Assembly: GCA_034433775.1 (NCBI GenBank)
Contig: DAOUAI010000032.1
Location: 206 to 64,205 of the forward strand
Source: Dehalococcoidia bacterium
Lineage (GTDB): Bacteria; Chloroflexota; Dehalococcoidia; GIF9; UBA5629
DNA: 64,000 nucleotides
Direction of reading: 5' to 3'
In this document: positions 9,365-64,000 of the stretch, piece after piece
Numbering within the stretch: position 1 is the first letter of the stretch
Layout: every line of letters starts with the position of its first letter
The notes under the pieces: model-generated
The model's database searches: none
Told to the model about the DNA's origin: nothing
Seen by the model: only the letters and a program-made list of their open reading frames with translations
Position numbers and translations under genes: made by a program

Positions 9365-9378
9365 AATTCAACTTCGAG

Positions 9379-9407: not shown

Positions 9408-9437
9408 TTTGCTGTACCACAGCGTATAGGGGGTATC

Positions 9438-20848: not shown

Positions 20849-20930
20849 ACTGCGGCTCTCCCGGTCTAGAATATGACCCCAAGCTACCTGGTATTCGCAA
20901 CAATCATTACCAAACTAGTGCCTCCAAACC

Positions 20931-23716: not shown

Positions 23717-23736
23717 TTCTACTAACTCCTTACTCC

Positions 23737-24702: not shown

Positions 24703-24718
24703 CGCTTGTTCTCCTTCC

Positions 24719-25156
24719 TTACCTTTTTGCTTTTGCAGCAGCTAATGCTCGACTCACCGGTTTGATCTTCTTTACCGGTCCCATACTGCGCAAAGTTTCA
24801 GTCATATCTTTAACATGATTAAGTATCTCTTTACCTTCGGGGTCTGAAGAGAGCACTATGCGCACCCGCTCCGTCTCGATACCGTAAGAACTCAGCAACT
24901 TTCTCAATAGATAAACTCTCTTCCGTGCCTCAAAATTACCGTCCTGATAATGGCAGTCCCCCTCAGGACAACCTAAAATAAGAACACCGTCAGCCCCGTT
25001 CTTAAATGCATCTACAATATGGGCGGCATCTATTTTGCCGCTACAAATTATAGGCACCCAGTTCTTTATTTGGGCAGCTAGCTGAGCCTCATCAGCCAAA
25101 TATCCCCAACTAAATTTGCAAGAAAAACAGACTAATTTAGGTTCGAAATTGTTCAC
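24719..25156 (-). CDS. MvhD/FlpD-like [2Fe-2S] hydrogenase delta subunit
   Basis: LVCFSC..., ICSGKIDAAHIVDAFKNGADGVLILGCPEGDCHY pattern; 145 aa. Confidence 0.8.
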   Translation of the reverse strand: MNNFEPKLVCFSCKFSWGYLADEAQLAAQIKNWVPIICSGKIDAAHIVDAFKNGADGVLILGCPEGDCHYQDGNFEARKRVYLLRKLLSSYGIETERVRIVLSSDPEGKEILNHVKDMTETLRSMGPVKKIKPVSRALAAAKAKR

Positions 25157-25183
25157 TTCTCCTCCTTACATCTTAGTTTGTAG

Positions 25184-26977: not shown

Positions 26978-27034
26978 AATTTACCTCCTTTAACTGCACG
27001 CTGATGCCTGCCAGAAAATCAGCAAAGCCAAAAT

Positions 27035-27063
27035 ATAATACAAAATTACTTACTGTTGTGCAA
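27035..27063 (-). promoter_or_regulatory. sigma70-like promoter for hydrogenase operon B
   Basis: On the minus strand TTGCAC (27063-27058), 17-nt spacer, TATTAT (27040-27035); RBS AAGGAGG immediately upstream of the 26977 start. Confidence 0.4.
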
Positions 27064-27090
27064 GATGCCCATTGTTAAAAGTTGGAGCGC

Positions 27091-27140
27091 TTAAAAAGTA
27101 ACCCCGTCTCTTATCGAGACAAAGTCCTCAGGGGGACTAA
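27091..27140 (-). terminator. putative intrinsic terminator of hydrogenase operon A
   Basis: Minus-strand hairpins AGTCC-CCCTGA-GGACT and GTCTC-GATAA-GAGAC followed by GGGGTTACTTTTT, just after the hoxH-like stop. Confidence 0.4.
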
Positions 27141-27151
27141 CAGAGACAATC

Positions 27152-28615
27152 TCAGTTCGTCAGCTCTCCCAAAAGTTCGCCCTTCTGTGAGATAAGCTGC
27201 ACTCTGAACGGCATCTGGCCTAGAACGTGTGTGGAGCAAGAGAGACAGGGATCGTAACAGCGGATCGCCACTTCTACCCGGTTGAGGATACCCTCAGTGA
27301 CCTTGCCATTTTTTATGAACTCCTTAGCCACCTCATACACCGCACGGTTCATTGCCCAGTTGTTGTTACCTGTGGCCACAATAAGATTAACCTTCAGGAT
27401 CTTACCAGTATCATCCACCCAGTAATGATGAAACAAAGTGCCCCTGGGAGCTTCGATAACTCCCACACCTTGCTCGTTATATTTTCCGGACTCTACAATC
27501 AAATCTGTAGAACAAATATCCTTATCTTCCAGCAATTGCTGAGCTCTTTCCAAAGAATAAAGTAATTCGATGAGACGTGCATAATGGTAGTAGAGCGAAC
27601 CTTCCACTATGCCATTCTTACCCAAGCTTTTAAAATTTTTGAGCTCTGATTGGGCCCTATAAGTTGATATCGCCCCACAGACATTCAAACGAGCCAGAGG
27701 ACCAGCCCTGTAGACTCCCTTCGGATAACCTTGCTTTTTATAAAAGGGGAACTTGAGATATGACCAGTCTTCCACATACTCATTGATGATATTCAGGTAG
27801 TTAGCAGGATCGAACTGGTCTTCAAGAACCTTACCTTCAGCATCAATTAGCCTCAATTTGCCATCATAAAGTTCGAGATTATTGTCTTTGTCCACCAATC
27901 CCAGATATCCTGTAGGAAAGCTTGCACATGTACAGACAAAATCTTTGTTGCGCTCATAAAATTGCTTTATTATCCCAATAGCAGCCTCAGCATCAGCTAT
28001 CATCTGGTCAATTTGTCTGAGAAAACGGTCGCGGTCAGATGGTGATAACGCTGTGTTCATGCCCCCGGGCACTGCACCATTAGGATGAACCTTTTTCCCG
28101 CCGATGGCTTGAATAATTGCCTGCCCGAAACCACGAAGCCTCACACCTTTGATAGCAAGCTCGGGGTTCGTCTCAATCAACCCCACCACATTCCGCTTCG
28201 CTGGCTCATAGTCCAGCCCCAGAAGTAAATCTGGACTAGCCAGATGGAAAAAGTGGAGAGCATGCGACTGGATAAATTGTCCCATATGCATTAGCTCTCG
28301 AAGTAACTTTGCCGGTCGGGTCAGTTCAACACCAAGAATTGCATCGCAAGCTTTGGCAGAGGCTAAATGATGGCTCACCGGGCAGATACCACAAATTCGC
28401 GGAGTGATCACAGGCATCTCCCAGAACACTCTGCCCTCGCAGAACTTCTCAAAGCCACGGAATTGAGTCACATGAAATCGAGCATCCAGAACATTCCCGT
28501 TATCATCAAGTTGAATGGTCACCTTACCGTGACCCTCAAGCCTGGTGACCGGGTTTATCTCAATTGTTTTACGATTTTCAGGAATTTCCTTGGTCTTCTT
28601 AACTTCAGTCGCCAT
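27152..28615 (-). CDS. [NiFe] hydrogenase large subunit, group 3 (HoxH-like)
   Basis: [12 protein letters not shown]-terminal Ni site, [10 protein letters not shown]-terminal site; 487 aa. Confidence 0.9.
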
Positions 28616-28627
28616 TCTGCACCTCTT

Positions 28628-29164
28628 TTAATCAAAGCGCATCATTTCACTGGGCAACACAGGTATCCGCCCCTCCAATAGTTCCTTTAAAGCGTAGAGA
28701 ATTGCCTTGGCATCTGGAGGACAACCTGGCACATAGCAGTCCACCTTTACCACGTGGTTCACCGGCTTCACCTGCTCCAGCAACGCTGGTACCCCGGGTG
28801 GACGAGGTATTTTCCCATCACAGGTGCTCTCAGTCTCAATATAGGCACGCCTTAGCACCTCATCTTTGTCAAATGTACTGCGCATTCCACAGACTCCACC
28901 AAAACAAGCGCAATCACCCCAAGCCATCAAAATCTTACAGTTAGCCCTGAGTTCTTTCAAAACCTCTTCTTCCTCCGTATTTCCTACCGAACCTTCCACT
29001 ATACCTACGTCCACTGGCGAGAACTCCTTGATATCGGTGATCGGGCTCCTAGTAAACTCAACCGCATTAAGTAATTCCACTATCGCCTCATCTATATCTA
29101 GAAATGACATATGACATCCGGAACAAGCTTCCAGCCAAACAGTAGCTACCTTCACTTTCGCCAT
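28628..29164 (-). CDS. [NiFe] hydrogenase small subunit, short group-3 type (HoxY-like)
   Basis: WLEACSGCHMS, GDCACFGG, VPGCPP; 178 aa with proximal cluster only. Confidence 0.85.
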   Translation of the reverse strand: MAKVKVATVWLEACSGCHMSFLDIDEAIVELLNAVEFTRSPITDIKEFSPVDVGIVEGSVGNTEEEEVLKELRANCKILMAWGDCACFGGVCGMRSTFDKDEVLRRAYIETESTCDGKIPRPPGVPALLEQVKPVNHVVKVDCYVPGCPPDAKAILYALKELLEGRIPVLPSEMMRFD

Positions 29165-29189
29165 AGAAACAACTCCCTCTATTTAGTGA

Positions 29190-31184
29190 TTACCTGCTGA
29201 GCCGCCTGTCGACCTCGCTGATGAGTTCCCAGTCAGCACGAATTCCTTCCGGTGGCCTGACAAGCCGCGTGGTATGTTTAGTTAGGCCATCGATGGTAGT
29301 ATAAGTCCCGCTGACCTCTGTCCAGAGTGGTGACGGCAATACCACGTCTGCTTCGGAGACAACACCAGACATAAAGCTTGCCTGTGCCACGAGGAATTCA
29401 ATACCGCTAGGACGAGCTGCCAATCCAGGCAACTCGGAGCAATCTTCACCTAAGAGTAAGTACAAAGCCTTTATGGAACCGTCTTTGAGTAACTTTGCCA
29501 AACTGAACTCACCACTATTGACCACCTCCGTATTCCAGAGCCCAACGCTATTTCCTCCCGGCTTTAACCACAGCGTCTTCAATGTCCGTCCCCCGTCTCC
29601 AAATAAGCTCGCTAGGCCAAAAAGCAATGCTACCAATCCCGGCTTCTCTTGCTGCAAAAACCCCTGCCCATAGATAACAACACAGCGCTTTGCCTTAGCT
29701 ACCATAGAAGCAGCACTCTTCAGTCCTTCATAATCAAGACCTGCGCGCTCACAAACATCTGCTGGCTTAATGTCCGAAAGCGAAGCAGCAAACTTTTTGT
29801 TCCTGGCCGGGTTGCCGATCACACCTTCGTCAATAATTATTCTAGACAAAGCTTTAATGGCTAACTCTTCCTTACCTTTGTCCGGACACAACCACAACAC
29901 CGCTTGATAAGGAAAACTGTTTCTCACAGCGTCGAAAACAATGAGATTCGCCCCATTTCGCCTGACTGCACGGACAATGAGGGAACCAATCACAGGATGG
30001 GTCTCCAGAGGATCAGCGCCAGCCACAAACAGGCAATCGGCCTCCAATAGTTCCTCGACTGAGCGGAGTTCGAGGTCTTTTAACTCCTTTTTACCATCTG
30101 ATGCTTGCAATGCCTGCCCGACAACCCTGAAATAATCCCCATCCAGGCTATCAAGTCGCTTACTTCCTAGAGAGCCCGTTATAAACTCCTTGAAAGCCCT
30201 GGCAGACTCGTTAGATAATTGGCTCGAAATCAACCCAGCAATACTATTAGCGCCGTGACGTGTCTTCATATCCCGTAACTTGGTAGACACAATCTCTATA
30301 GCCTCCGCCAAGGAACAAGGCTCTAGCTTACCGTTGCTCCGCTTTAGCGGGGTCAGAATGCGTTTGGCAGTTACCTGCGAGAAAGAAAAACGCCCTTTCC
30401 TGCACAGCAGACCACGCGGTTTGGAAAGGTCAGGGCTGTCAATTTTCACTACCCTGTTGTCTTTGATAAATGCCTTAATCTCACAGCCGACACCGCATAT
30501 CGGACAAACACTTGTCACCTGCTCACATTCTGAACTCCTGCCCTTATAAGCGCTGGACTTTGAGAAAATAGCACCGGTGGGACAAACCTGGAAACAAGCC
30601 CCGCAAGAAATGCATGAGGACTCCCCAAGTGGTTGACCCAGGTCAGCCACCACCCTGTCCCGCCAGCCACGGTAACCAAAGTCCAGAATATGGATACCAG
30701 CAAATTCGTCACACGCCCGTATGCAGCGTCCACAAAGAACACATCGGTTATGGTCAACAACCAGATATTTGTTCACCGAGTCCACGGGCAATGATGGCCA
30801 GGAAAGGGGATATCGTAAGTTGTCCATCTGATAGCGATAAGCGAGTGCCTGTAATTCACATTCTCCACTAGCTACACATTGTGCACATAGATGGTTTTTC
30901 TCGGTAAACATCAACTCGAGGATGAGACGACGATATTTCTCCAGTTTTTCAGTATGTGTCTGCACTACCAAACCATCCCGTGCAGGATAAGTACAGGCCG
31001 GCATCACTCGCCTTTCTCCTTCTATTTCCACCAGACAGAGCCTGCAAGCAGCCACATCGCTCAGCCCATCGTAATGACACAGCGTTGGAAGGTCGATATT
31101 ATTCGCCTTGCAAACCTCAAGGATAGTATCACCTTCTTTCCCTTTGACCTGTTTCCCGTTGATGGTTAAAGTAATCTCGTTCAT
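29190..31184 (-). CDS. NuoG/HoxU/FdhA-like subunit: N-terminal 2Fe-2S plus 4Fe-4S domains followed by a partial molybdopterin-oxidoreductase-like domain
   Basis: CxxxxxxxxxxCxxC 2Fe-2S, HLCAQCVASGEC, CVLCGRCIRACDE, CISCGACFQVCP, MopB-type CPICGVGCEI plus RILTPLKR; 664 aa. Confidence 0.8.
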   Translation of the reverse strand: MNEITLTINGKQVKGKEGDTILEVCKANNIDLPTLCHYDGLSDVAACRLCLVEIEGERRVMPACTYPARDGLVVQTHTEKLEKYRRLILELMFTEKNHLCAQCVASGECELQALAYRYQMDNLRYPLSWPSLPVDSVNKYLVVDHNRCVLCGRCIRACDEFAGIHILDFGYRGWRDRVVADLGQPLGESSCISCGACFQVCPTGAIFSKSSAYKGRSSECEQVTSVCPICGVGCEIKAFIKDNRVVKIDSPDLSKPRGLLCRKGRFSFSQVTAKRILTPLKRSNGKLEPCSLAEAIEIVSTKLRDMKTRHGANSIAGLISSQLSNESARAFKEFITGSLGSKRLDSLDGDYFRVVGQALQASDGKKELKDLELRSVEELLEADCLFVAGADPLETHPVIGSLIVRAVRRNGANLIVFDAVRNSFPYQAVLWLCPDKGKEELAIKALSRIIIDEGVIGNPARNKKFAASLSDIKPADVCERAGLDYEGLKSAASMVAKAKRCVVIYGQGFLQQEKPGLVALLFGLASLFGDGGRTLKTLWLKPGGNSVGLWNTEVVNSGEFSLAKLLKDGSIKALYLLLGEDCSELPGLAARPSGIEFLVAQASFMSGVVSEADVVLPSPLWTEVSGTYTTIDGLTKHTTRLVRPPEGIRADWELISEVDRRLSR

Positions 31185-31186
31185 CC

Positions 31187-34100
31187 TTATTCTCCTACCT
31201 CAAGGTCGCATCTCAGGCACCTTTTAGCTTCCCTTCTGGCTTCTTCTTCTGTAAGAGGCAGTTCTATCTCTTCAAAGCTCTGCCGCCTTTTCTCTACGGG
31301 AAGCGTTGGTGCCTCTCGCCGGGGTTGTTCTTTCCATATTTCTTTAGCCACATCAATAGGCAACTCTTCAGCAATCTCAACTTTACGTTTAAGCTCGTGC
31401 AACTCCACTCTAGATGTATCTCCCCTGAGATACTTGTCTATAGCTATAGCCGCCCTCCTCCCGTCAGCAATAGCATATATTACCATGTCAGGACCCCTGA
31501 CAAAGTCACCGCCAGCGAAAATGCCAGGGACATTAGTAGCTAAAGTGTTGGAGTCGATTCGAAGTCGATCCCACTCTGTTCTTTCCAGGCGGCTATCCGG
31601 GGGCAAGAAAGAGAGGTCTGGCGCTTGCCCCACAGCAGCAATTACTGCGTCTGCCTCCACCACGAAATCAGAGCCCGGGATAGGTGCTGGCCTGCGTCTA
31701 CCGCTTGCATCGATATCTCCCAACTCCATGCGAACGCACCGCAAACCTGTGACCTTCCAGTTCTCACTCAAAATCCGCACTGGGTTGACTAAGAAGTTCA
31801 TCTTAACCCCCTCAGCCACTGCCCCCTCATATTCCACCTCGGACACTGGCATCTCCTCTCGAGTGCGGCGGTAATAGATGTTCACCTCTTCTGCCCCGAG
31901 TCTTAGCGCAGCACGTGCTGAATCTATAGCCACATTACCGCCACCGATAACAGCTACTCTCCGCTCGATCTTCGTCTGCCTACCAATTTTGACATCACGC
32001 AAAAAAGTGAGGCCATAATAAAGACCGGTCAGTCCCTCCACCTCGCCAGGAATCCCTATCCGCTGGCTTTTTTGTGCTCCTGCGGCGATAAAAACCGCAT
32101 CGTAGCCACTTTGCAGAAGGTGCCTCACACGGAAATTCTCGTTTATCGGTGTGCTATACCTGATCTCCACCCCCCGCTTTGCAATGTACTCGATTTCCTG
32201 TTCGATAACTTTACGCGGTAAGCGGAACTCCGGGATGGCTACAGCAAGCATCCCACCACCCACTGGAAGCGCTTCAAACACCGTCACACCATATCCCATC
32301 TGCGCCAAGAAATAGGCACAGCTAAGACCTGTTGGACCAGCCCCGACCACAGCCACCTTCTGAGGCTTAGTCCTGGGAAAAGGCTGAGGTGGGGGCACTT
32401 TATCGAGATTATCAAAATACCAATCGGCAGCAAATCGCTTGAGTGCCCGAATAGCCATAGGTTCATCAATATCTTTTCGCCGGCACTTGTATTCGCATGG
32501 ATGATGGCAGATTCGCCCACATATTGCTGGGAATGGGTTGCGTTCTCTGATAGTCTCCACCGCCTCCAAATACTCCCCGGCAGCAATATGAGCAATATAT
32601 TTCGGGATATTAATGCCCACCGGGCAAGTATGCTGACAAGGTGACGGAAATAACGCCTGACATACTGCAGCCGGGCACCGCTTGTCCATGATATGGGCTT
32701 CGTACTCCTCCCTGAAATGTCGCACAGTAGTCAGCACAGGATTAGGCGAAGTCTGCCCGAGTCCACAAAGTGAGCAGGAGCTTACCATCTCAGCAAGTTC
32801 TTCGATGGTGCTCAAGTCTTCCATCGTTCCCTCGCCGTTCGTTATCTTGGTCAGTAATTCTAGCATCTTAGGTATCCCTGCCCGACAGGGAGTGCACTTA
32901 CCGCACGACTCGTCTCTGGTGAACTGGAGGAAAAACTTAGCCACATCAACCATACAGCTATCTTCGTCCATTACCACCAGACCTCCAGACCCCATAATCG
33001 CGCCGAGACTGGTGATAGACTCATAGTCTACAGGTGTGTTAATATGCTGAGTAGGAATAACACCACCAGAAGGCCCCCCCATCTGCACCGCCTTAAATCT
33101 CTTGCCTTCTGGTATGCCACCGCCGATATCAAAGATTATTCTTCCCAACCTCGTCCCCAGAGGGACTTCAACCAGCCCGGTGTTGTTTATTTTTCCTACT
33201 AGACAAAGTACCTTCGTGCCCTTACTTCTTTCCGTACCCACAGCTGAAAACCAGTCTGCTCCCTTCCAGATGATTTGCGGCACGTTTGACCAGGTCTCTA
33301 CATTATTAATAGTGGTCGGCTTACCAAAAAGTCCTTTGTTCGCAGGAAACGGCGGACGCTGCCGTGGGTTGCCACGCCTACCCTCAATAGATATTAAAAG
33401 TGCTGTTTCTTCACCACAGACAAAAGCCCCCGCCCCAGGGAAAATATCAAGGTCAAATTCAAATCCTGTGCCCAGTATATTTTTCCCCAGTAACCCATGT
33501 TCTCGGGCCTGCTCAATAGCATGTCGTAACGTTTCAATAGCTAAAGGATACTCAGCTCGTATATAGGCATACCCTTGGCGCACATTACCGATAGCGTAAG
33601 CACCTATTGTCATTCCCTCGATTATGGAGTGCGGATTGCCCTCCAAAACGGCACGGTTCATATACGCCCCGGGGTCACCTTCGTCGCCGTTACATACCAC
33701 AAATTTCTCATCCCCAGGCGCGTTGCGAACAAACCCCCACTTAGTAGCTGCAGGGAATCCAGCACCACCACGCCCCCTTAAACCGGACTTCCGAACCTCA
33801 TCCAGGACTTCATCAGGGGACATTTGCGTTAATACCTTAGCCAACGCCTGGTAGCCATCCCTGGCAATATATTCCTCGATATCCATCGGGTCAATATCCT
33901 GATTATGCATTATCCTTATCTCTTGAAATCCAAAAGGGGGAGACTCAGTATCCAGCACCCATTCTGCTACCGGTGTCCCTTTGATAAGATGCTGGTCAAC
34001 AATGCGCTGCACTTTATCCTCAGAGAGGTCAGCGTAGATAAATCTCCTCTTATTTCCAGGCTCAATAACAGTAATTACAGGTTCACGCCCGCATAGTCCA

Positions 34101-34315
34101 ATGCAGCTTGCCTTTAACACAACTACATCAGACAACTTCCGAGATGCTATCTCGCGCTCGAGAGCCGCCAGTATCCGGTTTGCCCCTGAGGATATACCAC
34201 ATGTACCTAGATGCACTCTGACCTGTATCTTCTTTTCCCGCTCTGCAACTTTAGCCTGAGCCTGTTCCTTCCAGCTTGAAAGCTCTTTCACTGACGCAAG
34301 TGGCTTTACAATCAT
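31187..34315 (-). CDS. fusion of NuoF/HoxF-like NADH-binding FMN/[4Fe-4S] subunit (with N-terminal thioredoxin-like 2Fe-2S domain) and a C-terminal GltD-like NAD(P)H:FAD oxidoreductase
   Basis: GRGGAGFPAATKWGF and ESCGKCTPCR (NuoF core); extra clusters CSLCGLG, CPAAVCQALFPSPCQHTCP, CGRICHHPCEYKC; VAVVGAGPTGLSCAYFLAQMGY plus VAVIGGGNVAIDSAR dinucleotide folds; 1042 aa. Confidence 0.8.
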   Translation of the reverse strand: MIVKPLASVKELSSWKEQAQAKVAEREKKIQVRVHLGTCGISSGANRILAALEREIASRKLSDVVVLKASCIGLCGREPVITVIEPGNKRRFIYADLSEDKVQRIVDQHLIKGTPVAEWVLDTESPPFGFQEIRIMHNQDIDPMDIEEYIARDGYQALAKVLTQMSPDEVLDEVRKSGLRGRGGAGFPAATKWGFVRNAPGDEKFVVCNGDEGDPGAYMNRAVLEGNPHSIIEGMTIGAYAIGNVRQGYAYIRAEYPLAIETLRHAIEQAREHGLLGKNILGTGFEFDLDIFPGAGAFVCGEETALLISIEGRRGNPRQRPPFPANKGLFGKPTTINNVETWSNVPQIIWKGADWFSAVGTERSKGTKVLCLVGKINNTGLVEVPLGTRLGRIIFDIGGGIPEGKRFKAVQMGGPSGGVIPTQHINTPVDYESITSLGAIMGSGGLVVMDEDSCMVDVAKFFLQFTRDESCGKCTPCRAGIPKMLELLTKITNGEGTMEDLSTIEELAEMVSSCSLCGLGQTSPNPVLTTVRHFREEYEAHIMDKRCPAAVCQALFPSPCQHTCPVGINIPKYIAHIAAGEYLEAVETIRERNPFPAICGRICHHPCEYKCRRKDIDEPMAIRALKRFAADWYFDNLDKVPPPQPFPRTKPQKVAVVGAGPTGLSCAYFLAQMGYGVTVFEALPVGGGMLAVAIPEFRLPRKVIEQEIEYIAKRGVEIRYSTPINENFRVRHLLQSGYDAVFIAAGAQKSQRIGIPGEVEGLTGLYYGLTFLRDVKIGRQTKIERRVAVIGGGNVAIDSARAALRLGAEEVNIYYRRTREEMPVSEVEYEGAVAEGVKMNFLVNPVRILSENWKVTGLRCVRMELGDIDASGRRRPAPIPGSDFVVEADAVIAAVGQAPDLSFLPPDSRLERTEWDRLRIDSNTLATNVPGIFAGGDFVRGPDMVIYAIADGRRAAIAIDKYLRGDTSRVELHELKRKVEIAEELPIDVAKEIWKEQPRREAPTLPVEKRRQSFEEIELPLTEEEARREAKRCLRCDLEVGE

Positions 34316-34332
34316 CTTGTCCCCCTAATCAC

Positions 34333-34872
34333 CTAACTATAGGAATCTAGGATTTCTTTTAATTTGCTTGGCTTCACTTTTCTATGCACATCATGCCCAA
34401 TGGCTATCACCGGCGACAAACCACAGCAACCGAGACATCTGACCGTTTCCAATGAAAACTTACCATCAGGGGTAATACCCTTGGGCTCCAGACCATAGTC
34501 CTTCTTTAATGCCTTCAAAATCCTCTCGGACCCCTTAACATAGCAACTCGTCCCCGTACAGACTTGAATAACATGTTTACCCTTTGGCACAAGAGAGAAA
34601 AAGTGGTAAAAACTGACTATACCATAGACCTCACTCAAGGGCACTTTCATCTCAGCCGAGACCACTCGTAACACTTCAGGCGGTAAATAACCTACAATCC
34701 CCTGCACCTGCTGCAATACCCGTATTATAGCCCCCGCCTTCCCAGCATTTTCATCTACCACCTTAAGTATCCGCTGCAAAACCTCTCGGTTAATACCCTC
34801 CGCTGTTTTTGTTGCCGTAGCAGTACCTGTTTGCTGCACAGTTGCCCCCTTTGATATTTGAGTATGATTCAA
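34333..34872 (-). CDS. NuoE/HoxE-like thioredoxin-fold [2Fe-2S] subunit
   Basis: VCTGTSCYVKG...CLGCCGLSP 2Fe-2S ligand pattern of the 24-kDa subunit family. Confidence 0.85.
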   Translation of the reverse strand: MNHTQISKGATVQQTGTATATKTAEGINREVLQRILKVVDENAGKAGAIIRVLQQVQGIVGYLPPEVLRVVSAEMKVPLSEVYGIVSFYHFFSLVPKGKHVIQVCTGTSCYVKGSERILKALKKDYGLEPKGITPDGKFSLETVRCLGCCGLSPVIAIGHDVHRKVKPSKLKEILDSYS

Positions 34873-43331: not shown

Positions 43332-43724
43332 TTACTTAACTTCTACTGTAGCCCCAGCCTCTTCCAGCTTTTTCTTTATTGTAGCTGCCTCTTCCTTACC
43401 TATACCCTCCTTGACAGGCTTCGGGGCGCTTTCCACAAGCTCTTTAGCCTCCTTCAGCCCCAAAGTGGTAACCTCTCGCACTGCTTTGATCACATTGATC
43501 TTATTCTCACCAACCTCCTTTAAAATGACCGTAAATTCGGTCTTCTCTTCCTCAGCTGGTGCAGCTGCCACTGATGCACCTGGAGCCGTTGGGGCTGCAG
43601 CTACTGCTACTGGTGATGCAGTGATGCCAAACTCCTCCTCTAGAGCTTTAACCAACTCGGCTAACTCCAAAACCGTCATCTTTTTTACCGCTGCTATAAT
43701 TTCCTCTTTTGTCATTGTTATCAC
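43332..43724 (-). CDS. rplL: 50S ribosomal protein L7/L12
   Basis: Ala/Glu-rich hinge and a conserved C-terminal domain ([20 protein letters not shown]...[20 protein letters not shown]). Confidence 0.9.
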
Positions 43725-43819
43725 TCCTTTTCCTTAGAATAATCACTTCAGCCCAGATTGTTTTCCGGGACTGTTTTTTTCACTCGAGCTTCAGCCTTTA
43801 ATCCTCACATCCGATAATC

Positions 43820-44356
43820 TTAATTTCCCCCAATCTGCTGGGCCCTGAGATTCAACACGCTGACAAACGACCGTAACGGGGCAGCCAACATGTTATGTAA
43901 AATTTGCAACGGTGCTTGCAATTGACCGATCAACCTGGCAAGTAAAACTTCTCGCGATGGTAATGTAGCCAAACTTGATACCCCTTCAGCATTCAATAGC
44001 TTGTCGCCTAACACTCCACCTTTGATCTGCAGCACCGATCCGGATGACTGAATATATTCCCGCAAGACACGCGCTGGCTTGACCACATCATCAAAACAGA
44101 ATGCTAAAGCCACAGGACCGTTCAACAATACACTCAATTGCTGTACACCAGCTTTCTCAGCGGCAAACCTAGCTAAGGTATTTTTCACCACACGATATTC
44201 AATACCCTCGTCCGCGAGCAAGCGACGAAGCTGCATTACTTCCCTCGCCGTTATTCCTCGGTAATCTACAGCTATAGCTATAGAACAACGAGATAGCCTT
44301 TCAGCTAATTCCTCTATAACTTTTTTCTTTTTTTCTTTCTCTTTCGGCATATACAC
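43820..44356 (-). CDS. rplJ: 50S ribosomal protein L10
   Basis: L10 fold and synteny with rplL. Confidence 0.9.
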   Translation of the reverse strand: MYMPKEKEKKKKVIEELAERLSRCSIAIAVDYRGITAREVMQLRRLLADEGIEYRVVKNTLARFAAEKAGVQQLSVLLNGPVALAFCFDDVVKPARVLREYIQSSGSVLQIKGGVLGDKLLNAEGVSSLATLPSREVLLARLIGQLQAPLQILHNMLAAPLRSFVSVLNLRAQQIGGN

Positions 44357-44530
44357 ACCCCCTATAACCTAAAAAAGTCCTTGTGCCTAGGCATCAAGGA
44401 CTTCTACGAAAACTTCCTTTCTGGTCAGCCTAGGCAGGCCTGCAATTTAAGCCCTAAGAGGCACCTGCGGTTATGGGCACAGACCAAAATTTATGCTATT
44501 TTCAGTTAACCAAAATCCAGCCTCTTAAGC
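44357..44530 (-). promoter_or_regulatory. rplJ leader region (candidate L10-L12 autoregulatory leader)
   Basis: 174-nt untranslated gap between rplA and rplJ, the canonical position of the L10 leader. Confidence 0.4.
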
Positions 44531-45232
44531 TTAGGACAAAAGCGTCTTCAAGTCAAGTCTGATCCCTGGTCCCATGGTGGTCGATAGGAAAGCACTGCGG
44601 ATGTACTGTCCCTTTGCTCCGCTGGGCCGAGCTCTCACTACAGACTCCACCACTGCATTTAGATTGTCCAGGAGTTGGTTATCAGCAAAGCTGATTTTGC
44701 CAATCGGTACATGGATAATCCCCGTCCTATCCAAGCGGAACTCTACCCTGCCTTTGCGAGCATCAGCTATAGCCCGCGGTAAGTCCTCTGCAGATACCAC
44801 GGTCCCTGACTTGGGATTAGGCATCAGCCCCTTGCGCCCTAATATCCTGCCTAACTTACCCACTTTACCCATCATGTCCGGTGTTGCAATGCCAACATCG
44901 AAGTCAAGCCAGCCGTCCTCTATCTTCTTAATAAGCTCATCACCACCCACATAATCAGCACCAGCCCCCTCAGCACTTCGAGCAGCCTCGCCTTGGGCAA
45001 AGACTAAAACCTTGATTCTCTTGCCCAGCCCATGTGGCAAAATAGCTATGCCACGTACTTGCTGCTCAGCGCTTCTCGGGTCAAGCCCCATCCTTAAATG
45101 TAGCTCAACAGTCTCATCAAACTTGGCAAATGCAGCCTTCTTGGCTAATGCAATGGCCTCGTTTGGTGGATAAGCAATCGCTCGATCCAAGACTTTGACA
45201 GCGCTCTGATATTTTTTACCTCTAGTCGTCAT
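44531..45232 (-). CDS. rplA: 50S ribosomal protein L1
   Basis: L1 family sequence, 233 aa, synteny. Confidence 0.9.
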
Positions 45233-45235
45233 ATT

Positions 45236-45658
45236 TTATTCCACCTTGATACCCATACTACGTGCTGTACCTTCAACAATTTTTGCTGCGGCCTCAACGT
45301 CCCGTGCATTCAAATCTTTCATCTTGAGTTTAGCAATTTCATAAAGCTTAGACCGCGATAAAGTGCCTGCACTCTGCCTACCCGGAGTACCACTTCCCTT
45401 TTCGATGCCTAAAGACTTCTTCAGCAAATCGGAAGCTGGAGGTGTTTTAGTGACAAAACTGAACGACCTGTCTTCATATATGGTTATTTCCACCGGTACG
45501 ATAGAGCCAGCCTGCGATTTAGTCCTCTCATTGTAGTCCTTACAAAAAGCCATGATATTGACACCGTGCTGACCAAGAGCTGGTCCTACCGGTGGAGCAG
45601 GTGTTGCTTTACCAGCCTCGATCTGCAATTTTATAACTGCTTTAATCTTTTTAGCCAT
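45236..45658 (-). CDS. rplK: 50S ribosomal protein L11
   Basis: [29 protein letters not shown] start. Confidence 0.9.
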
Positions 45659-45660
45659 CC

Positions 45661-46194
45661 TTATAACCTCTGAACCTGTAAGAAATCAAGCTCCACAGAC
45701 GTCTCACGACCGAACAACGTTAGCAATACTCTAACTTTGCCCCTTGTCTCATTTATCTCATCAACAACCCCCACAAAATCAGTGAATGGCCCGTCGACCA
45801 CACGCACACTATCGCCCTTCCGAAATCCTATCTTTACTCTAGGAACGCCCTCTTTCATCTGCTTCAATATAGACTCCACCTCCGATTCAGACAGTGGCGT
45901 CGGTTTGCTACCACTGCCTACAAAACCGGTTATTCCTGGTGTATTCCGCACCACATTCCAGCTCTTATCATCCATTTTCATCTGCACAAGCACGTATCCC
46001 GGGAATACTTTTTTCGTCACTGTCCTGCGCTGCCCACCTTTGACCTCTATCTCTTCTTCGGTTGGAATCACAACCTGGAAAATCTTGTCCGCGGCGTCCA
46101 TGAACTTCACTCGCTGCTCCAGAGCTTTCTTTACACGCTCTTCATACCCAGAATAAGTATGCACGATATACCACTTTCTATCATTGTCAGTCAT
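45661..46194 (-). CDS. nusG: transcription termination/antitermination factor NusG
   Basis: NGN domain plus KOW motif ([11 protein letters not shown]). Confidence 0.9.
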
Positions 46195-46200
46195 GGAAAA

Positions 46201-46431
46201 TTAGCTCCCGCCCAAGAAGATTTTAGACACGAGTTCTGCAAAACCGTAGTCCAGAACTCCTAAAATGAGCCCGACTGCAACACATAAAGCAATAACCATA
46301 AGCGTCAACCGCAAGGTCTCCTGTCTTGATGGCCAAACAACTTTCCTTAACTCACCAACGATGTCGCTGATAAAAGCGAACCTTGAACGTTTTTTGGGCT
46401 TGGCAGTCTGAAGCTGAGCTTTCTTCACCAA
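46201..46431 (-). CDS. secE: preprotein translocase subunit SecE
   Basis: Single C-terminal TM helix, position between rpmG and nusG; non-ATG (TTG/GTG) start. Confidence 0.8.
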   Translation of the reverse strand: MVKKAQLQTAKPKKRSRFAFISDIVGELRKVVWPSRQETLRLTLMVIALCVAVGLILGVLDYGFAELVSKIFLGGS

Positions 46432-46434
46432 AGA

Positions 46435-46602
46435 TTATCTGGTCTCCCGGTGGAGTGTGTGAGCATGACAACGTGGACAATACTTACGTAACTCCAACCG
46501 CTGCGGGTCATTCTTCTTATTCTTCGTGGTAGTATAGGTCCTCTCCTGGCATTGAGTACACGCCAAGTGGATAATACCACGAGATTCACCTTTCTTAGCC
46601 AT
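46435..46602 (-). CDS. rpmG: 50S ribosomal protein L33 (55 aa, below the ORF-track length cutoff)
   Basis: Hand translation [55 protein letters not shown] with CxxC...CxxC zinc ribbon. Confidence 0.8.
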
Positions 46603-46604
46603 GA

Positions 46605-47802
46605 CTATTCTAATATCTTGCTGATAGCACCAGCACCAACTGTTCTGCCACCCTCTCTAATAGCAAAACGCAGCCCGGATTCCAAGGCAACCGGGTATAT
46701 CAACTTAACAGTCATCTTTATATTATCTCCAGGCATTACCATCTCAACACCCTTGGGCAACTCGATAGTGCCAGTGACATCCAATGTTCGTATATAAAAC
46801 TGAGGCTTGTAACCATTAAAGAAGGGGGTGTGACGCCCACCTTCCTCTTTTGTCAACACGTACACCTCAGCTTCAAAATGCGTGTGGGGCGTGATAGAGC
46901 CAGGAGCAGCCAGGACCTGCCCCCTCTCGATTTCATCACGCTCTATGCCTCTGAGCAGACAGCCAACCGCATCGCCAGGCTCTGCAAACTCAAGCGTTTT
47001 ATGGAACATCTCCAAGCCCGTTATCACGGTCTTGCGTGTTTCTTTGATGCCAACAATCTCAACTTCATCACCTACCTTCGCCACACCACGCTCCACCCTG
47101 CCTGGCTACTGTGCCACGCCCCTTGATTCCAAAAACGTCTTCGACCGGCATCAAGAACGGCTTATCCTTCGGTCTAACAGGCAATGGAACCCACTCGTCG
47201 ACAGCATCCGTCAGCTGAAGAATCTTGCCGCACCACTGACACTCCCTCTTACCACAGCCGCACTCCAAAGCTTTTAACGCGCTTACTCTAACCACAGGCG
47301 TCTTGTCACCCGGGAAACCGTATTTTGCAAGTAACTCCCTAACTTCAAGTTCAACAAGCTCGAGCAGCTCTTCGTCCTCCATAGCATCTACCTTGTTCAA
47401 TGCTACCAGCATACTGGGCACCTCGACCTGGCGAGCCAGAAGAATATGCTCTCTGGTCTGGGGCATAGGACCATCGGGAGCACTCACCACCAGTATCGCA
47501 CCATCCATCTGGGCTGCACCTGTAATCATGTTCTTTATATAGTCGGCATGCCCGGGGCAGTCCACATGAGCATAATGGCGTTTCTCAGTCTCATACTCAA
47601 TATGAGCGATAGCAATCGTCAAACCGCGTGCTTTCTCCTCAGGAGCATTATCTATAGAATCAAATGAGCGAAACTGAGTTGGTCCATTCTTCGACAACAC
47701 CAGCGTAATCGCTGAGGTCAAAGTGGTCTTGCCATGGTCCACATGACCAATTGTCCCTACATTAACATGCGGTTTGGTTCGCTCAAAAACCTTCTTTGCC
47801 AT
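46605..47802 (-). pseudogene. tuf: elongation factor Tu split by an apparent 2-nt deletion (frameshift near 47103)
   Basis: N-terminal ORF ([22 protein letters not shown]) ends ...[17 protein letters not shown]; C-terminal part resumes in the +1 frame as [15 protein letters not shown]; the junction corresponds to canonical GRGTVVTGRVERG. Confidence 0.85.
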
Positions 47803-47826
47803 TTTTAAAACCCTCCTTTTCTACCG

Positions 47827-47899
47827 AGCCCACAACCAGATTCGAACTGGTGACCCCGTTCTTACCAAGAACGTGCTCTACCTGCTGAGCTATGTGGGC
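47827..47899 (-). tRNA. tRNA-Thr(GGT)
   Basis: Hand-folded: acceptor GCCCACA/TGTGGGC, anticodon loop TTGGTAA, T-loop TTCGAAT. Confidence 0.85.
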
Positions 47900-47984
47900 A
47901 ACTAATTACGTTATCCCTTTTCAGGGTTACCAAAATTTTTATCAGATTATACACTATTTTAATAAACTCTCCAAGATTTGCAAG

Positions 47985-48070
47985 TGGTGGAGGGGGTAGG
48001 ATTCGAACCTACGCAGCCTTCAGGCGGCAGATTTACAGTCTGCTCCGATTGTCCACTCCGGCACCCCTCC
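47985..48070 (-). tRNA. tRNA-Tyr(GTA), long variable arm, CCA encoded
   Basis: Acceptor GGAGGGG/CCCCTCC, anticodon loop CTGTAAA, long variable arm, T-loop TTCGAAT; close resemblance to E. coli tyrT. Confidence 0.85.
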
Positions 48071-48085
48071 CAGACAATACACGAT

Positions 48086-48158
48086 AGCCCGAGAGGGGAG
48101 TCGAACCCGCTAACCTACCGATTACAAGTCGGTTGCGCTACCATTGCGCCACTCGGGC
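48086..48158 (-). tRNA. tRNA-Thr(TGT)
   Basis: Acceptor GCCCGAG/CTCGGGC, anticodon loop CTTGTAA, T-loop TTCGACT; one C-C mismatch in the T-stem. Confidence 0.7.
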
Positions 48159-48330
48159 AAACAAGCTTAGCACTCTGGCTTCGCCTTGAACTATGCTCAA
48201 TTTCAGGCTCTTAGTATAAATAAAGAGAAGAGTAAAAGTCAAACTAAGCGAGGCATTTTACTCTCAGGTGATAAGGTCTTGTCTGTTATCTAAGGTGTGT
48301 CTTCTTCACCTTGAATGATAACAACCTCAG

Positions 48331-48957
48331 CTATTCGACCCCAGCACCTGAAACAAGCCTTTGACCGGCAATAAAAGCCTCGTCCAATGCTGCTGGATAT
48401 CGCAGAATGGCCCCCTTCTCATCAATCCCGGAAAAGGTTACCTCACCAGCATAGTCCACATCTAGAGTCGCGAACAAGCTCTTCACCGTCGCTATCGCTG
48501 GCCGGAACAGGTTGTGTACCTTCCTCCCACCCACCGAAACGAACAGTCCACTACGTTCCTTACCCGAGGGAATAGACACCGGCAGCTTGAGGACATACTT
48601 TACAACCCAGAGCGCCTGGCAGCGGTCAATCATAGCCTTAGTCTGAGCTGTCAGCCCCATGAAGAAAATCGGTGACGCTAATACGATACGATCTGCTTCC
48701 CTTAAATCAACGTGCAACCACTGCATATCATCATTTACAACACATTTGCCTGTGTTCAAACAACCATCACAATGCCGGCAAGGAGCAATGTCCAGCTCAC
48801 TAAGCACAACAGTCTTGACCTTAGCTCCCTGTTCAGCAGCACCAGCCATTACACGCTGAAGGAGAACATCCGTATTGCCATTACGCCGGGGGCTACCAGC
48901 TATACCCAGAACCTTTATATTTCGGACTACCTCTTTCTTTTCCTTGTTATTAAACAT
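48331..48957 (-). CDS. iron-sulfur flavoprotein (Isf) / NADPH-dependent FMN reductase family
   Basis: KVLGIAGSPRRNGNTDVL flavodoxin-like start plus compact Cys motif CRHCDGCLNTGKC; start ATG 48957. Confidence 0.75.
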   Translation of the reverse strand: MFNNKEKKEVVRNIKVLGIAGSPRRNGNTDVLLQRVMAGAAEQGAKVKTVVLSELDIAPCRHCDGCLNTGKCVVNDDMQWLHVDLREADRIVLASPIFFMGLTAQTKAMIDRCQALWVVKYVLKLPVSIPSGKERSGLFVSVGGRKVHNLFRPAIATVKSLFATLDVDYAGEVTFSGIDEKGAILRYPAALDEAFIAGQRLVSGAGVE

Positions 48958-49226
48958 TCTGTGTTCACCTGAATACAGTAACAAACAAAACTTTCTGCTC
49001 CTCATTCGGGACACTCATGCTGGGACAGACTGCCACAAAATGCATTAAGGTGACACAACTCATTATACTTTAGCAACACAACGATTATCTAATCATCGCC
49101 CGCAAAACACGAAAACAGAAATGGCAAAGCCGGTCCGGCACAATATATTTTGCAGGCAACAGCACAAATAGGCTAAAATTAAAAGCACTTTTTATTTTAT
49201 CAAACCGAAACCCAGCGAGGGAGAAA

Positions 49227-49928
49227 ATGATAAAGGACAAAATACTACAACAAGCCAGGAAAGAAAAAAGAACACTGCTCACCGAGATCGAATCCAAAGA
49301 CCTTCTAGAAGAGGCTGGGATACCTGTTGCCAAGGCTAAGTTAGCACGGACAAGGTCCCAAGCAATTTCCTTAAGCAAAGAGATGGGGTTCCCTGTGGCA
49401 CTGAAAATCGTTTCACCTGATGTAATCCATAAAAGCGATTCCGGTGGTGTCAAACTTGGACTTCGCAATGCAACCCAAGTTAGCAAAGCTTACAGTGACA
49501 TACTTTCCTCAGTGAAACAGCGCCATCCTGATGCAAGAATTTATGGTGTCTCAGTCCAGAAGATGGCTCGCCCGGGGATAGAAGTTATAATCGGCATGAC
49601 AAAAGATGCACAATTTGGCCCAGTGCTGATGTTCGGACTCGGTGGAATCCTAGTCGAGGTTCTAAAGGATGTTGCTTTCAGAATAGTACCACTCACAAAA
49701 AGAGATGCCAGAGAAATGATAAAAGAGATAAAAGGCTACCCGCTGCTCCAGGGTTACAGAGGACAAGAGCCTGCGGATATTGCTTTCCTTGAAGAATTGC
49801 TGATAAAAGTCTCCAACTTTATCGAGAAAAACCCTGAGATAAAAGAGTTGGACCTCAATCCCGTTTTCGCTTATAGAAGCGGAGCAGTAGCGGTGGATGC
49901 CCGGGTGATTCTGGAACCTTTTTCATAA
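49227..49928 (+). CDS. ATP-grasp domain protein, ADP-forming acetyl-CoA synthetase beta / succinyl-CoA ligase beta-like
   Basis: LLEEAGIPV, ALKIVSPDVIHKSDSGGVKLGL, IEVIIGM ATP-grasp pattern; no alpha (CoA-binding) partner in the window. Confidence 0.65.
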   Translation: MIKDKILQQARKEKRTLLTEIESKDLLEEAGIPVAKAKLARTRSQAISLSKEMGFPVALKIVSPDVIHKSDSGGVKLGLRNATQVSKAYSDILSSVKQRHPDARIYGVSVQKMARPGIEVIIGMTKDAQFGPVLMFGLGGILVEVLKDVAFRIVPLTKRDAREMIKEIKGYPLLQGYRGQEPADIAFLEELLIKVSNFIEKNPEIKELDLNPVFAYRSGAVAVDARVILEPFS

Positions 49929-50002
49929 TCACCTTCAAGCTTGGATACACAAAAACTCGCGCTTGAACACCACCCGTAAGATACCCTGCCTTGCCTAAAA
50001 TA

Positions 50003-58029: not shown

Positions 58030-59070
58030 CTACCACAGACCTTGCTGTGCGGGATGACCCTTCCGATAAACAAGTCCAAGATGCTCATAGGCAAGCTTTG
58101 TAGCTGCCCTGCCTCTGGGAGTACGCTCTATAAACCCTAATTGAAGTAAATAAGGCTCGTATACATCCATTATTGTATCGGCCTCTTCACTGATAGATGC
58201 GGCTATAGTCTCCAAGCCAACCGGTCCACCGTTAAATTTCTCAATAATAGTATGCAATATTTTATGGTCAATCTCATCCAGTCCAAGAGAATCTACTTCC
58301 AGCCTTAGAAGTGCCTCAATCGCCACCGACTCGGTAATCACACCATCAGCTACCACCTGAGCATAATCGCGCACTCTTTTGAGAAGACGATTAGCAACCC
58401 GGGGTGTCCCTCGAGCCCGACAGGCAATTTGACTTAGCCCCCCTTCGTCTATTTCGATATGCAGCAGGTCTGCAGACCGCCTGAGGATCTTTTTGATTGA
58501 CATATCGTCATAAAAATCGAGACGGTACACAGCACCAAACCTATCCCTTAAAGGCGGACTCATCAAAGCATAGCGAGTCGTAGCCCCAATCAAGGTGAAT
58601 GGTGGCAAGTTTAAACGGAGGCTACGCGCTCCCGGTCCTTTACCAATCACTATATCTATAACAAATTCCTCCATCGCTGGATAAAGGACTTCCTCCACAG
58701 GATGGCTAAGCCGGTGAATCTCGTCAATGAAAAAACTGTCGTTCTTCTGCAGGTTAGTCAAGATAGCTGCTAAGTCACCGGGACGTTCTATCGCTGGTCC
58801 TGACGTGACCTTGATATTAACCCCCATCTCAGCAGCAATAATATAAGCCAGAGTAGTCTTACCCAAGCCGGGTGGCCCATAAAACAAAATGTGGTCTAGT
58901 GGTTCGCTTCTTTTTTTAGCTGCAGCAATCGCTATTTCTAAATTTGCTTTAACTTTGTCTTGACCAATAAATTCTTCCAAACGTCGGGGGCGGAGCCTGG
59001 TATCCAGCGATACATCGTCTGCACTTGGCTTGGCTGAAATTATCCGTGTCCTTGTTTCTTTCTCCTTCAT
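58030..59070 (-). CDS. ruvB: Holliday junction branch-migration ATPase RuvB
   Basis: [23 protein letters not shown] Walker A, RuvB winged-helix C-terminus. Confidence 0.9.
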
Positions 59071-59358
59071 TTTACCGCTGCATAACTTCGTAATTAACCG
59101 TCACCGCACCACATTATAGCATTATATCTGCATATTTCCCTACTCCGTTGCTGTAACTAATCCAGTTATTGTAAAAGTTCTAGCGATACATGACAAAACA
59201 CCGGTCGACACCAAACCCGATCCTGCAGAAAAGGCAGCTAAATTCCAGAAGTCGTGGCAAAACGGGCAAACAAACCAGAACTAACCCTTCCCACCACATT
59301 CGAAATTTTTAAGTTCGGATGTATTTTCAACCTTATCCCCACCAAGAGACCAATTTCT

Positions 59359-62300
59359 CTAGAGCGCAGGTAACATATCTCGATCGACAGGGACAGCTTC
59401 CTCCTCTGAAGACAAAGCCCGCGCCGGAATAAGCTTGCCTATAATTACATTCTCCTTGAGACCAAGCAGGCGGTCTGTCTTCCCCCAAATCGCCGCTTCC
59501 GTCAAAACTCTAGTAGTCTCCTGGAACGAAGCAGCAGATAGCCAGCTGTCAGTATTCAAAGAGGCACGAGTGATACCCAAAAGAACAGTCTGGGCTGTAG
59601 CTGGCTCACCACCTTCCGCCAGTACTTTAGCGTTTATGCTCTCATACTCAAATCGGTCAACCAGGTCACCAGGTAAAAGGTCAGTATCACCAGGAGACTC
59701 AATGCGTACACGCCTCAACATCTGGCGGATGATAATTTCAATGTGCTTATCATTGATATTGACACCCTGCGAGCGATAGACCTTTTGCACTTCCTCAGCC
59801 AAGTATTGCTGTACGGCATCCCTGCCCATTATGCGCAGAATATCTTGCGGGTCGATCACCCCATCTGTCAGTTGTTCCCCGGCTTTCACTCTATCTCCTG
59901 GCTTGACCCGGATGCGACTTCCAGAAGGAATTACATATTCACGTTCCTCAACTTCCTCATACCCGATAAAGATTTGCCTGTTGCGGACGGTCACAGTACC
60001 AGAAACCCTGGCTATAATAAGGGAGTCATCGGCAACTGCCAGACGCTGCTCAGCTATTTCCTCTGGAGACCGAGAGGCTATAGAAGCGAGTCTGGTTCCA
60101 GCCTCGACCCATTGCCCATCAGTCACCAGCAAGGTAGCTCCTGAGGGCAAAGAATACTCGTCCTGATAGTATTCAGAACTGACAACCTTGACCTTCCGCA
60201 TATCCTGAGTCTCGATCACATCGTCCACAACACCATCGATCTCAGAAACAACAGCCACACCTTTCGGGACCCTAGCCTCAAACAACTCTTCGACTCTCGG
60301 CAAACCTGTAGTGATATCGGCACCGACCACGCCCCCTGTATGGAAAGTCCGCAAAGTTAGCTGTGTGCCGGGTTCACCGATACTTTGAGCAGCAATGATA
60401 CCCACAGCAGTGCCAATAGCTACCAACCCTCGTCTAGCTAGATCCCGCCCATAGCAATGCTGACAGATACCTCGCTTTGAACGACAACTCAAAGGTGACC
60501 TGACATAAACCTGCGTAATACCTGCATCGATAATTTGTTTCGCCTTATCCTCATTTATTTCTTCATTTCTGCGAACAATAACTTCACCGGTCACCGGATT
60601 AATAACATCAGCAGCCGCCAAACGTCCCAAGATTCGCTCACTCAAAGGTGGCAATAATCCCTTGTCAGGCTTGTCAAACAACCAGACACCTTCCTCGGTA
60701 CCACAGTCCTTTTCCAGAATAATCAAATCTTGAGCCACATCTATAAGTCGGCGTGTAAGATAACCAGCATCAGAAGTTCTCAGCGCAGTATCAGCTAGAC
60801 CCTTGCGGGCTCCATGAGTTGAAATAAAATACTCTATTACATCGAGCCCCTCACGAAAACTGGAGCGGATAGGAAAGTCTATTATCCTGCCAGAAGGGTC
60901 GGTCATAAGACCGCGCATCCCAGCCATCTGTCTAATCTGCGAGATGTTACCTTTAGCACCCGATGTTGCCATCATATAAAGTCCGCCATAACGATCAAGC
61001 GATTGGGCGACAGTATCTGTAATCTTATCTGTGGTCTCCGACCACACCTGGATTGCACTACTATATCTCTCGTCTTCTGTAATCAATCCCCGATCGTATT
61101 GACTTTCAATAACAGCTATCTTTTCCTCGCCTTCTTCTAAAATCTTCGCTTTGTTCTTCGGCACCTCGATGTCCTTGGCAGCAATGGTTACTCCTGATTT
61201 GGTAGCAAACTCAAACCCTAAGCGTTTAAGGCTATCGAGCATTGTCACCGTAGGAGCGCTTCCTAATACACGATAACAATCCAATACCAAACGTTTAAGT
61301 GAGGCTTTGTCCATTACCTGATTACAGAAGCGGAACTCAGGTGGCAGCACTTCATTGAACAAAATCCGCCCTACACTGGTTTTCAGCCTTGCCCCTCCCG
61401 ATTCAAGCCTCACCTCTATCTCGGCATGTAATTCTACGGCACCCGTCTCATAAGCCAGCTTAGCTTCATCAAAACTACCAAAGACCATCCCTTCCCCTCT
61501 AGCCCCCGGACGGGTGATAGTAAGATAATAACAGCCTAGTACCATATCTAGCGTAGGTGTCATCACAGGTTCACCACAGCTTGGTAGTAGCATATTATGA
61601 ATACTAAGTACGTGTTCCTTCGCTTCCCTAACTGCTGCCCGAGAGAGAGGCACATGAACTGCCATCTGATCGCCGTCGAAATCCGCATTAAAGGCAGCGC
61701 AAACTAACGGGTGGATCTGAATCGCACTGCCTTCGATAAGAACCGGCTCGAAAGCCTGAATGCTCAAGCGGTGCAAAGTGGGAGCCCTGTTAAGCAAAAC
61801 CGGACGTTCTTTAACCACTTCAGCCAGAATATCCCATACCTCAGGTCTTGCTCTTTCTACCTGTCTGCGGGCGCTCTTAATGTTGTGAGCATAGCCCTGA
61901 TCGATAAGGCGTCTCATTACAAAAGGCTTAAATAACTCCAGGGCCATATGTTTAGGTAAACCACACTGATGTAATTTTAATTCAGGTCCAACAACAATAA
62001 CTGAACGGCCACTGTAGTCCACCCGCTTGCCCAATAAGTTCTGACGGAAACGTCCCTGCTTCCCCCGAAGCATATCCGATAGAGACTTCAGCCTGTGAGT
62101 TCCGCTCACTGCAGCCGCTCGTCCCCTGCGCCCACTATCAACAAGCGCGTCAACAGCCTCTTGAAGCATTCTTTTCTCGTTACGAATGATTATCTCAGGG
62201 GCACCCAGGTCTATCAACCGCTTAAGACGATTATTACGATTAATCACCCGGCGGTAAAGGTCATTAAGATCGCTGGTAGCAAACCGCCCCCCATCAAGTT

Positions 62301-63246
62301 GCACTATGGGGCGAAGATCTGGGGGTAACACCGGGAGAACAGTCAATATCATCCACTCCGGCTTATTACCACTGCGCCAAAAAGCCTCTACCACCCGCAA
62401 CCTCTTTATCGCCTTTTTGCGGCGCTGCCCAGAACTAGAACGAACCTCGTCCCAGAGTTCCTGCCGCAACTTCTCCAGATCCATATCCCTCAAAATGTCA
62501 AGGATTGCCTCCGCCCCCATAGCAGCTTTAAAGAAATCGCCATAATCCCCCTTCAACTCCTGATATTGATTTTCAGTGAGGAGCATCAACGGCTGCAAGT
62601 TTTCAAGAATTGATATCCTTTCCTGTAACATGTCCTGAAGTTCCGCTTTCTCCTCTTCAAACTCACGCCGCAACTCGTTTATTTTCGTGATTGTCTCCAG
62701 ATTTGAAGTAGGCTGTCCCTTAGCTTGCTCATGAGAAATGCGTTTCTCCAGTGCTGCTTCCCTTTTCGAAACCCGCTGTCTAAGGCTTTCTTTCAGTCTT
62801 TTAACTACTTCGTCACGAGCCTGAGTATCAACCGAGGTGACAATATACTGCGCAAAATACAGAACTCGCTCGAGATTACGAGGGGAAATATCCAAGAGCA
62901 ATGCCAATCTGCTGGGTATCCCCTTGGCAAACCAGACATGAGCCACCGGTGCGGCTAGTTCAATATGCCCCATGCGTATTCTACGTACACGGGAGTGCTC
63001 TACTGTAACGCCACACCTATCACAAGTCACACCCCGATACCGTATCTTTTTATATTTTCCACAATAGCATTCGTAGTTCTTTGTCGGTCCAAAAATTCTT
63101 TCGCAAAAAAGCCCATCCTTTTCCGGTTTTAGAGTGCGATAGTTTATCGTCTCTGGTTCAGTTACTTCACCATAAGACCAGCTTCGAATCTGCTCTGGCG
63201 AAGCCAGTGAGATTCGAACAGCATTGAAATCATTTACTTCTATCAT
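59359..63246 (-). CDS. rpoC: DNA-directed RNA polymerase subunit beta'
   Basis: N-terminal zinc-binding CxxC...CxxC, NADFDGD catalytic motif, 1295 aa. Confidence 0.95.
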
Positions 63247-63258
63247 CTTGCCTCTCCC

Positions 63259-64000
<742 letters not shown>

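Follow-up and report, generated by a model that had tools for sequence, protein, structure and literature searches.

The interrupted tuf gene and its surroundings

The window, by which we mean the whole 64-kb stretch of DNA that was analysed, carries on its minus strand an EF-Tu gene (tuf), located directly downstream of three tRNA genes and followed by the genes from rpmG to rplL (Table 1), an organization that is the classic tufB-type arrangement, tRNA-Thr/Tyr/Thr-tuf-(rpmG)-secE-nusG-rplKAJL. The reading frame of this tuf is interrupted. Three-frame translation of the minus-strand ORF 47802..47068 gave a product of 244 amino acids that follows canonical EF-Tu through GIKGRGTVA and then ends with 11 foreign residues and a stop, and the neighbouring frame (47102..46608, stop codon at 46605-46607) runs to the normal EF-Tu C-terminus. 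The frame breaks after GTA GCC A (47103) and picks up again at GGC AGG GTG from 47102 downwards, a deletion of two nucleotides, ‘CG’, sitting between 47103 and 47102, in the codon for the Thr of the invariant GRGTVATGRVERG motif. Instead of one uninterrupted frame of about 394-405 codons, the broken gene would yield products of 244 and approximately 160 amino acids; with the two bases put back, it encodes a 399-amino-acid EF-Tu. When this repaired protein was searched against the window with tblastn, residues 1-233 (47802..47104) and 235-399 (47102..46608) were placed in different frames at 100% identity each. The break and the resumption one frame over had been described in the original prediction, and its coordinates and peptide strings proved correct when compared with the ORF list, the translation and the tblastn result. 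The gap is a deterministic feature of the sequence, to which a chance test does not apply.

Judged from its sequence, the broken gene is beyond doubt that of EF-Tu: the repaired protein aligned with EF-Tu chains of the PDB over residues 1-399 (best E = 7e-198), its similarity to EF-Tu is full length, and its relatives carry the families PF00009, PF03144 and PF03143 (GTP_EFTU, GTP_EFTU_D2 and GTP_EFTU_D3). The Shine-Dalgarno sequence and the ATG are intact, and the gene has one lesion.

Table 1. Coordinates of the tuf gene, of its parts and of the adjacent genes in the window
Feature	Position	Strand	Basis
tuf (whole)	47802..46605	minus	
tuf codons 1-233, original frame: G domain and first strands of domain II	47104..47802	minus	tblastn with repaired EF-Tu, 100% identity; ORF list
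Orphan base A, what is left of the Thr234 codon, which is ACG in relatives	47103..47103	minus	alignment with L001-L010 (relative loci)
tuf codons 235-399 and stop codon, one frame over: rest of domain II and domain III	46605..47102	minus	tblastn, 100% identity; translation
Premature TGA closing the shifted N-terminal product after 11 out-of-frame residues	47068..47070	minus	ORF list; translation
tRNA-Thr(UGU), tRNA-Tyr(GUA), tRNA-Thr(GGU), directly upstream of tuf	47826..48158	minus	ARAGORN; Rfam tRNA matches
Downstream genes rpmG to rplL, all intact	43332..46602	minus	ORFs; gene order of relatives; tblastn, 93-100% identity, full length
rpmG	46435-46602	minus	
secE	46201-46431	minus	
nusG	45661-46194	minus	
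rplK	45236-45658	minus	
rplA	44531-45232	minus	
rplJ	43820-44356	minus	
rplL	43332-43724	minus	

Several other features of the window were recorded. At residues 180-193 of EF-Tu (47224-47265, minus strand), domain I contains a Cys-rich insert of five residues, whose four Cys are conserved in all 118 closest relatives. Two Dehalococcoidia MAG loci (L012, L013) and an Aquificota MAG (L020) carry the insert as well; other Dehalococcoidia loci and the solved EF-Tu structures that match best lack it. It may be a zinc knuckle. Further along the minus strand, a dense redox cluster (20177-34872) includes two pairs of [NiFe]-hydrogenase large and small subunits, an MvhD-like protein, an HdrA-like flavoprotein, a 1042-amino-acid fusion of NuoF-like and GltD/NfnB-like modules (31187-34315) and a 664-amino-acid formate-dehydrogenase-alpha-like protein (29190-31184) that gave no Pfam match to the usual C-terminal molybdopterin-binding domain. 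On the minus strand at 58030-64000, the gene that comes after rpoC and an rpoB truncated by the end of the window is ruvB, in place of the rpsL-rpsG-fusA operon. The rpoBC pair lies upstream of the rplKAJL cluster and apart from it, not downstream, a placement that is atypical with respect to the classical rplKAJL-rpoBC order.

Comparison with relatives and possible recoding at the junction

Through NusG sequences identical to that of the window, we found ten relative loci in independent ENA, JGI and NCBI assemblies, which share about 94% DNA identity with the window over 6.6-8.5 kb. All ten encode an intact 399-amino-acid EF-Tu, with identical gene order and Pfam families. At the junction they read GTA GCC/T ACG GGC/T AGG/A, where the window reads GTA GCC A-- GGC AGG; since the relatives read GCC ACG GGC AGR, it is ‘CG’ in the Thr codon that the window lacks. 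The proposal that two nucleotides are missing near 47103, and that repair of the Thr codon restores EF-Tu, was thus borne out to the base. The remaining indels between the window and these relatives over 8.5 kb are all intergenic or in leaders, the tuf gap being the sole frame-breaking difference, and the repaired EF-Tu differs from those of its two closest relatives at 5 of 399 residues. Conservation extends further: the 118 closest full-length EF-Tu sequences (88-99% identity) are all 399 amino acids long, GRGTV[A/V]TGRVERG is kept in each of the 26 closest EF-Tu inspected at the junction, and GRGTVxTGRxERG, the domain II strand that holds the break, is invariant in solved EF-Tu structures. 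MAGs of Dehalococcoidia/Chloroflexota are the nearest relatives with a name. A second small deletion specific to the window was noted near tuf, in non-coding sequence: at about 47803-47810, the run of A residues separating the Shine-Dalgarno sequence (AAGGAGGG) from the tuf ATG is one A short relative to all ten loci.

A gap of this kind could in principle be bridged during expression. The deletion would then be real, and EF-Tu would be made by programmed +1/-2 frameshifting at GCC AGG C or by transcriptional slippage, or would arise from the association of two fragments translated separately. Some features of the junction are compatible with such a mechanism, in that the overlap between the two frames is as short as about 30 nt, AGG is in some cases a rare codon, and a GTG start (47096) follows shortly after the break. 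However, none of the relatives has the frameshift (10/10 near-identical loci and 26/26 closest sequences are in frame, and 118/118 are 399 amino acids long), and the junction GTA GCC A GGC AGG contains no slippery heptamer (X XXY YYZ), no CUU UGA-like motif, no stop-codon-assisted shift site and no homopolymer run that would permit transcriptional slippage. At gathering thresholds, Rfam matched only tRNAs in the window and no recoding element. The site therefore shows neither of the two marks of a programmed frameshift, namely conservation in orthologues and a shift-prone motif accompanied by a stimulator or a known RNA family. The GCC codon in the P site cannot re-pair in the +1 frame (CCA), and the sole Shine-Dalgarno-like sequence, AAGGGG, lies about 17 nt upstream of the junction, compared with roughly 3 nt in prfB.

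The consequences for the protein are also unfavourable to this explanation. With a +1 shift the protein would lose the invariant Thr234, and with a -2 shift it would have Pro in its place, in a conserved beta-strand; a C-terminal part started independently at the GTG at 47096 would split the beta-barrel of domain II. EF-Tu is moreover required at very high abundance, with which inefficient recoding is incompatible. In established cases, the signals are well defined: the +1 site of prfB (RF2) consists of CUU UGA C with a Shine-Dalgarno-like sequence 3 nt upstream, and the -1 site of dnaX of A AAA AAG and a hairpin. The window tuf resembles prfB and dnaX in being an essential, translation-related gene with an interrupted frame, but their sites are conserved across species and carry defined signals, whereas the interruption studied here occurs in one contig and has none of those signals. 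Recoding was therefore rejected, the site being unconserved and devoid of signals: we regard rescue of a real deletion during or after expression as very improbable, and the specific case of a signal-less +1/-2 shift at GCC-A-GGC, or of a two-fragment EF-Tu, in a sole essential tuf as scarcely credible.

Decay, copy number and occurrence of the deletion

If the frame had been broken for long, the C-terminal half would have been left untranslated and would have evolved neutrally. We calculated dN/dS by the Nei-Gojobori method between the window and three relatives; codons 1-233 gave 0.024-0.046 and codons 235-399 gave 0.022-0.049, values indistinguishable from those between intact orthologues (0.03-0.05). 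None of the marks of an ageing pseudogene, such as raised dN/dS, extra lesions or loss of the start or of the ribosome-binding site, was found in either half of tuf. This lack of relaxation indicates that the lesion is either extremely recent or not real.

An extremely recent lesion would mean a new tuf pseudogene backed by a second intact tuf, or a defective minority allele of the population that happened to be assembled. Duplication of tuf is common in bacteria, and Proteobacteria carry the pair tufA/tufB, either copy of which can be inactivated in Salmonella and E. coli without loss of viability. The tufB-type locus of the window recalls this situation, in which a cell with a str-operon copy would tolerate a broken tuf. 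Such copies occur in Chloroflexia, since at two loci among the matches listed (L027, L066) tuf stands in a fusA-tuf-rpsJ context, and the part of the genome inspected amounts to 64 kb. Two further points lend some weight to a real event: with the contig otherwise clean, there is no particular reason to expect a chance error to hit tuf, and a 2-nt deletion outside a homopolymer is not the commonest kind of error.

Against a backup copy, tblastn with the repaired protein detected no second tuf in the 64-kb window. All contigs with the exact EF-Tu of two relatives (11 and 24, respectively) have tuf in the tuf-secE-nusG-rplKAJL context, none of the 35 showing fusA-tuf-rpsJ, and likewise the nine Dehalococcoidia-labelled loci among the matches listed from species-representative genomes all have the nusG context and none the fusA-linked one. 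The fusA/rpsJ context was found in many other phyla among the matches listed, and the best match of the repaired EF-Tu on species-representative genome contigs was 82% identical among those listed. Our literature search on tuf copy number in Dehalococcoides returned nothing usable. The presence of tuf only in the tRNA-tuf-rpmG-secE-nusG-rplK context, and never after fusA, suggests that tuf is single-copy in this lineage. EF-Tu being essential, a fixed knockout of a sole tuf copy would not be viable. The ‘single-copy-type’ label first given to the gene thus agrees with the context of tuf in the relatives and may hold for this genome itself.

The condition of the gene and the distribution of the deletion also weigh against a real lesion. 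As neither half has a non-synonymous excess or additional lesions, any pseudogenisation could only be of extremely recent date, and the allele without CG was found in no other assembly. Compared with the loss of one copy of a tufA/tufB pair, the present case differs in that no str-operon (fusA-tuf-rpsJ) copy was detected in the lineage of the window and that its tuf is undecayed. We thus consider a real and very recent lesion unlikely.

Variation in the surroundings of tuf was seen at some of the loci compared. In one relative (L001 932-1933, L094 2042-3043), an ISL3-family transposase lies directly upstream of the tRNA-tuf cluster and replaces the flavodoxin-like and ATP-grasp genes found there in the window (about 48300-50000) and in other relatives. 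Among the matches listed, a few MAG loci from Chloroflexota, Acidobacteriota and Bipolaricaulota (L015, L041 and L082) have an EF-G-like GTPase upstream of tuf and nusG/rplK downstream, as if the two classical contexts of tuf had been combined.

The deletion was also looked for in large sequence collections. In a collection of 15 billion proteins, the broken products of 244 and 159 amino acids come only from one NCBI contig of 64,226 bp, evidently the source of the window, as do the L1 and L11 proteins of the window; the 163-amino-acid C-terminal piece of tuf with a GTG start is absent from the collection, as is the SecE of the window, which has a TTG start, and for both of these M-start translations were also tried. 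A junction pattern accepting both forms, with which JGI metagenome contigs were searched for the allele without CG, matched two contigs, both intact, and a short junction-centred protein search for fragments of the same strain returned only fragments of at most 87% identity. A Logan contig (L011, run SRR11582153) is 100% identical to positions 48545-49935 of the window, and the same strain was therefore sequenced in that run; a literature search for the run accession yielded nothing usable. The L10 and L12 proteins of the window are present in Logan as well; the Logan contigs of this strain end before tuf, and none of the ten predicted partial products of the contig neighbouring L011 is on record. 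No independent contig of the same strain spanning the tuf junction was found among the Logan contigs and the protein-collection look-ups.

Origin of the two-base gap

We then considered the quality of the contig. None of the approximately 58 other ORFs in the 64 kb compared with Pfam looks split or truncated, and tuf is the sole broken gene; NrdR and ribonucleotide reductase overlap as separate genes, and rpoB leaves the window at its end. About 90% of the sequence is coding. As the other genes appear full length and the other indels are intergenic, the assembly is not generally indel-ridden, and an error-prone long-read assembly as a general property was rejected, there being no further split gene in the 64 kb. 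A chimeric join at the deletion received no clear support, since informative sites are interleaved over the whole 8.5 kb with no clear breakpoint; within tuf they divide 11:7 upstream and 4:10 downstream of the gap, a weak shift. Separately, an antisense ORF of 414 amino acids (8176-9420, minus strand) covers ftsZ (8210-9307, plus strand); it has no family match, is longer than the real gene and is almost certainly a spurious shadow ORF.

Taken together, the data indicate that the two-base gap is most probably an indel introduced by sequencing, assembly or consensus polishing of a draft contig. An error is the likeliest cause because every close relative is intact and neither half of the gene has decayed. 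Further support of this reading comes from three observations. First, the deletion occurs in no other public assembly. Second, the lineage seems to hold one tuf locus, so that a genuine knockout should be lethal. Third, the site is unconserved and has no recoding signals. Counted against an artefact are the cleanness of the rest of the contig, the nature of the change (ACGGGC to AGGC, a 2-nt deletion outside a homopolymer, which is not the commonest platform error type) and the lack of a clear chimeric breakpoint coinciding with the gap. As in the frameshift artefacts of draft and metagenome-assembled genomes, a single small indel affects an otherwise perfectly conserved essential gene in one assembly while the relatives are intact; unlike typical ones, the indel has two nucleotides, lies outside a long homopolymer and is accompanied by no further broken genes on the contig. 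The evidence agrees with the order in which the original prediction had ranked its explanations, an indel coming first, a second intact tuf second and correction at the level of expression third.

In the scenario of an artefact, ‘CG’ would have been lost during sequencing, assembly or polishing of the draft contig, which is probably metagenome-assembled, and the organism, a Dehalococcoidia-like member of the Chloroflexota, would almost certainly possess an intact 399-amino-acid EF-Tu with GCC ACN GGC AGG at the junction. Reads across the junction would be expected to show the intact frame.

Frameshifts of this kind in draft genomes are labelled ‘frameshifted; pseudo’ by NCBI PGAP. If the gap is an artefact, it concerns curation alone: it calls for correction of the contig or for marking of the gene as frameshifted, and this genome would be miscounted by completeness or marker-gene pipelines relying on tuf. 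A real deletion in a single-copy tuf would instead mean either an undetected paralogue in this Dehalococcoidia-like lineage or a new recoding mechanism, both of which are unlikely; in the latter case, recoding would affect one of the most highly expressed bacterial genes.
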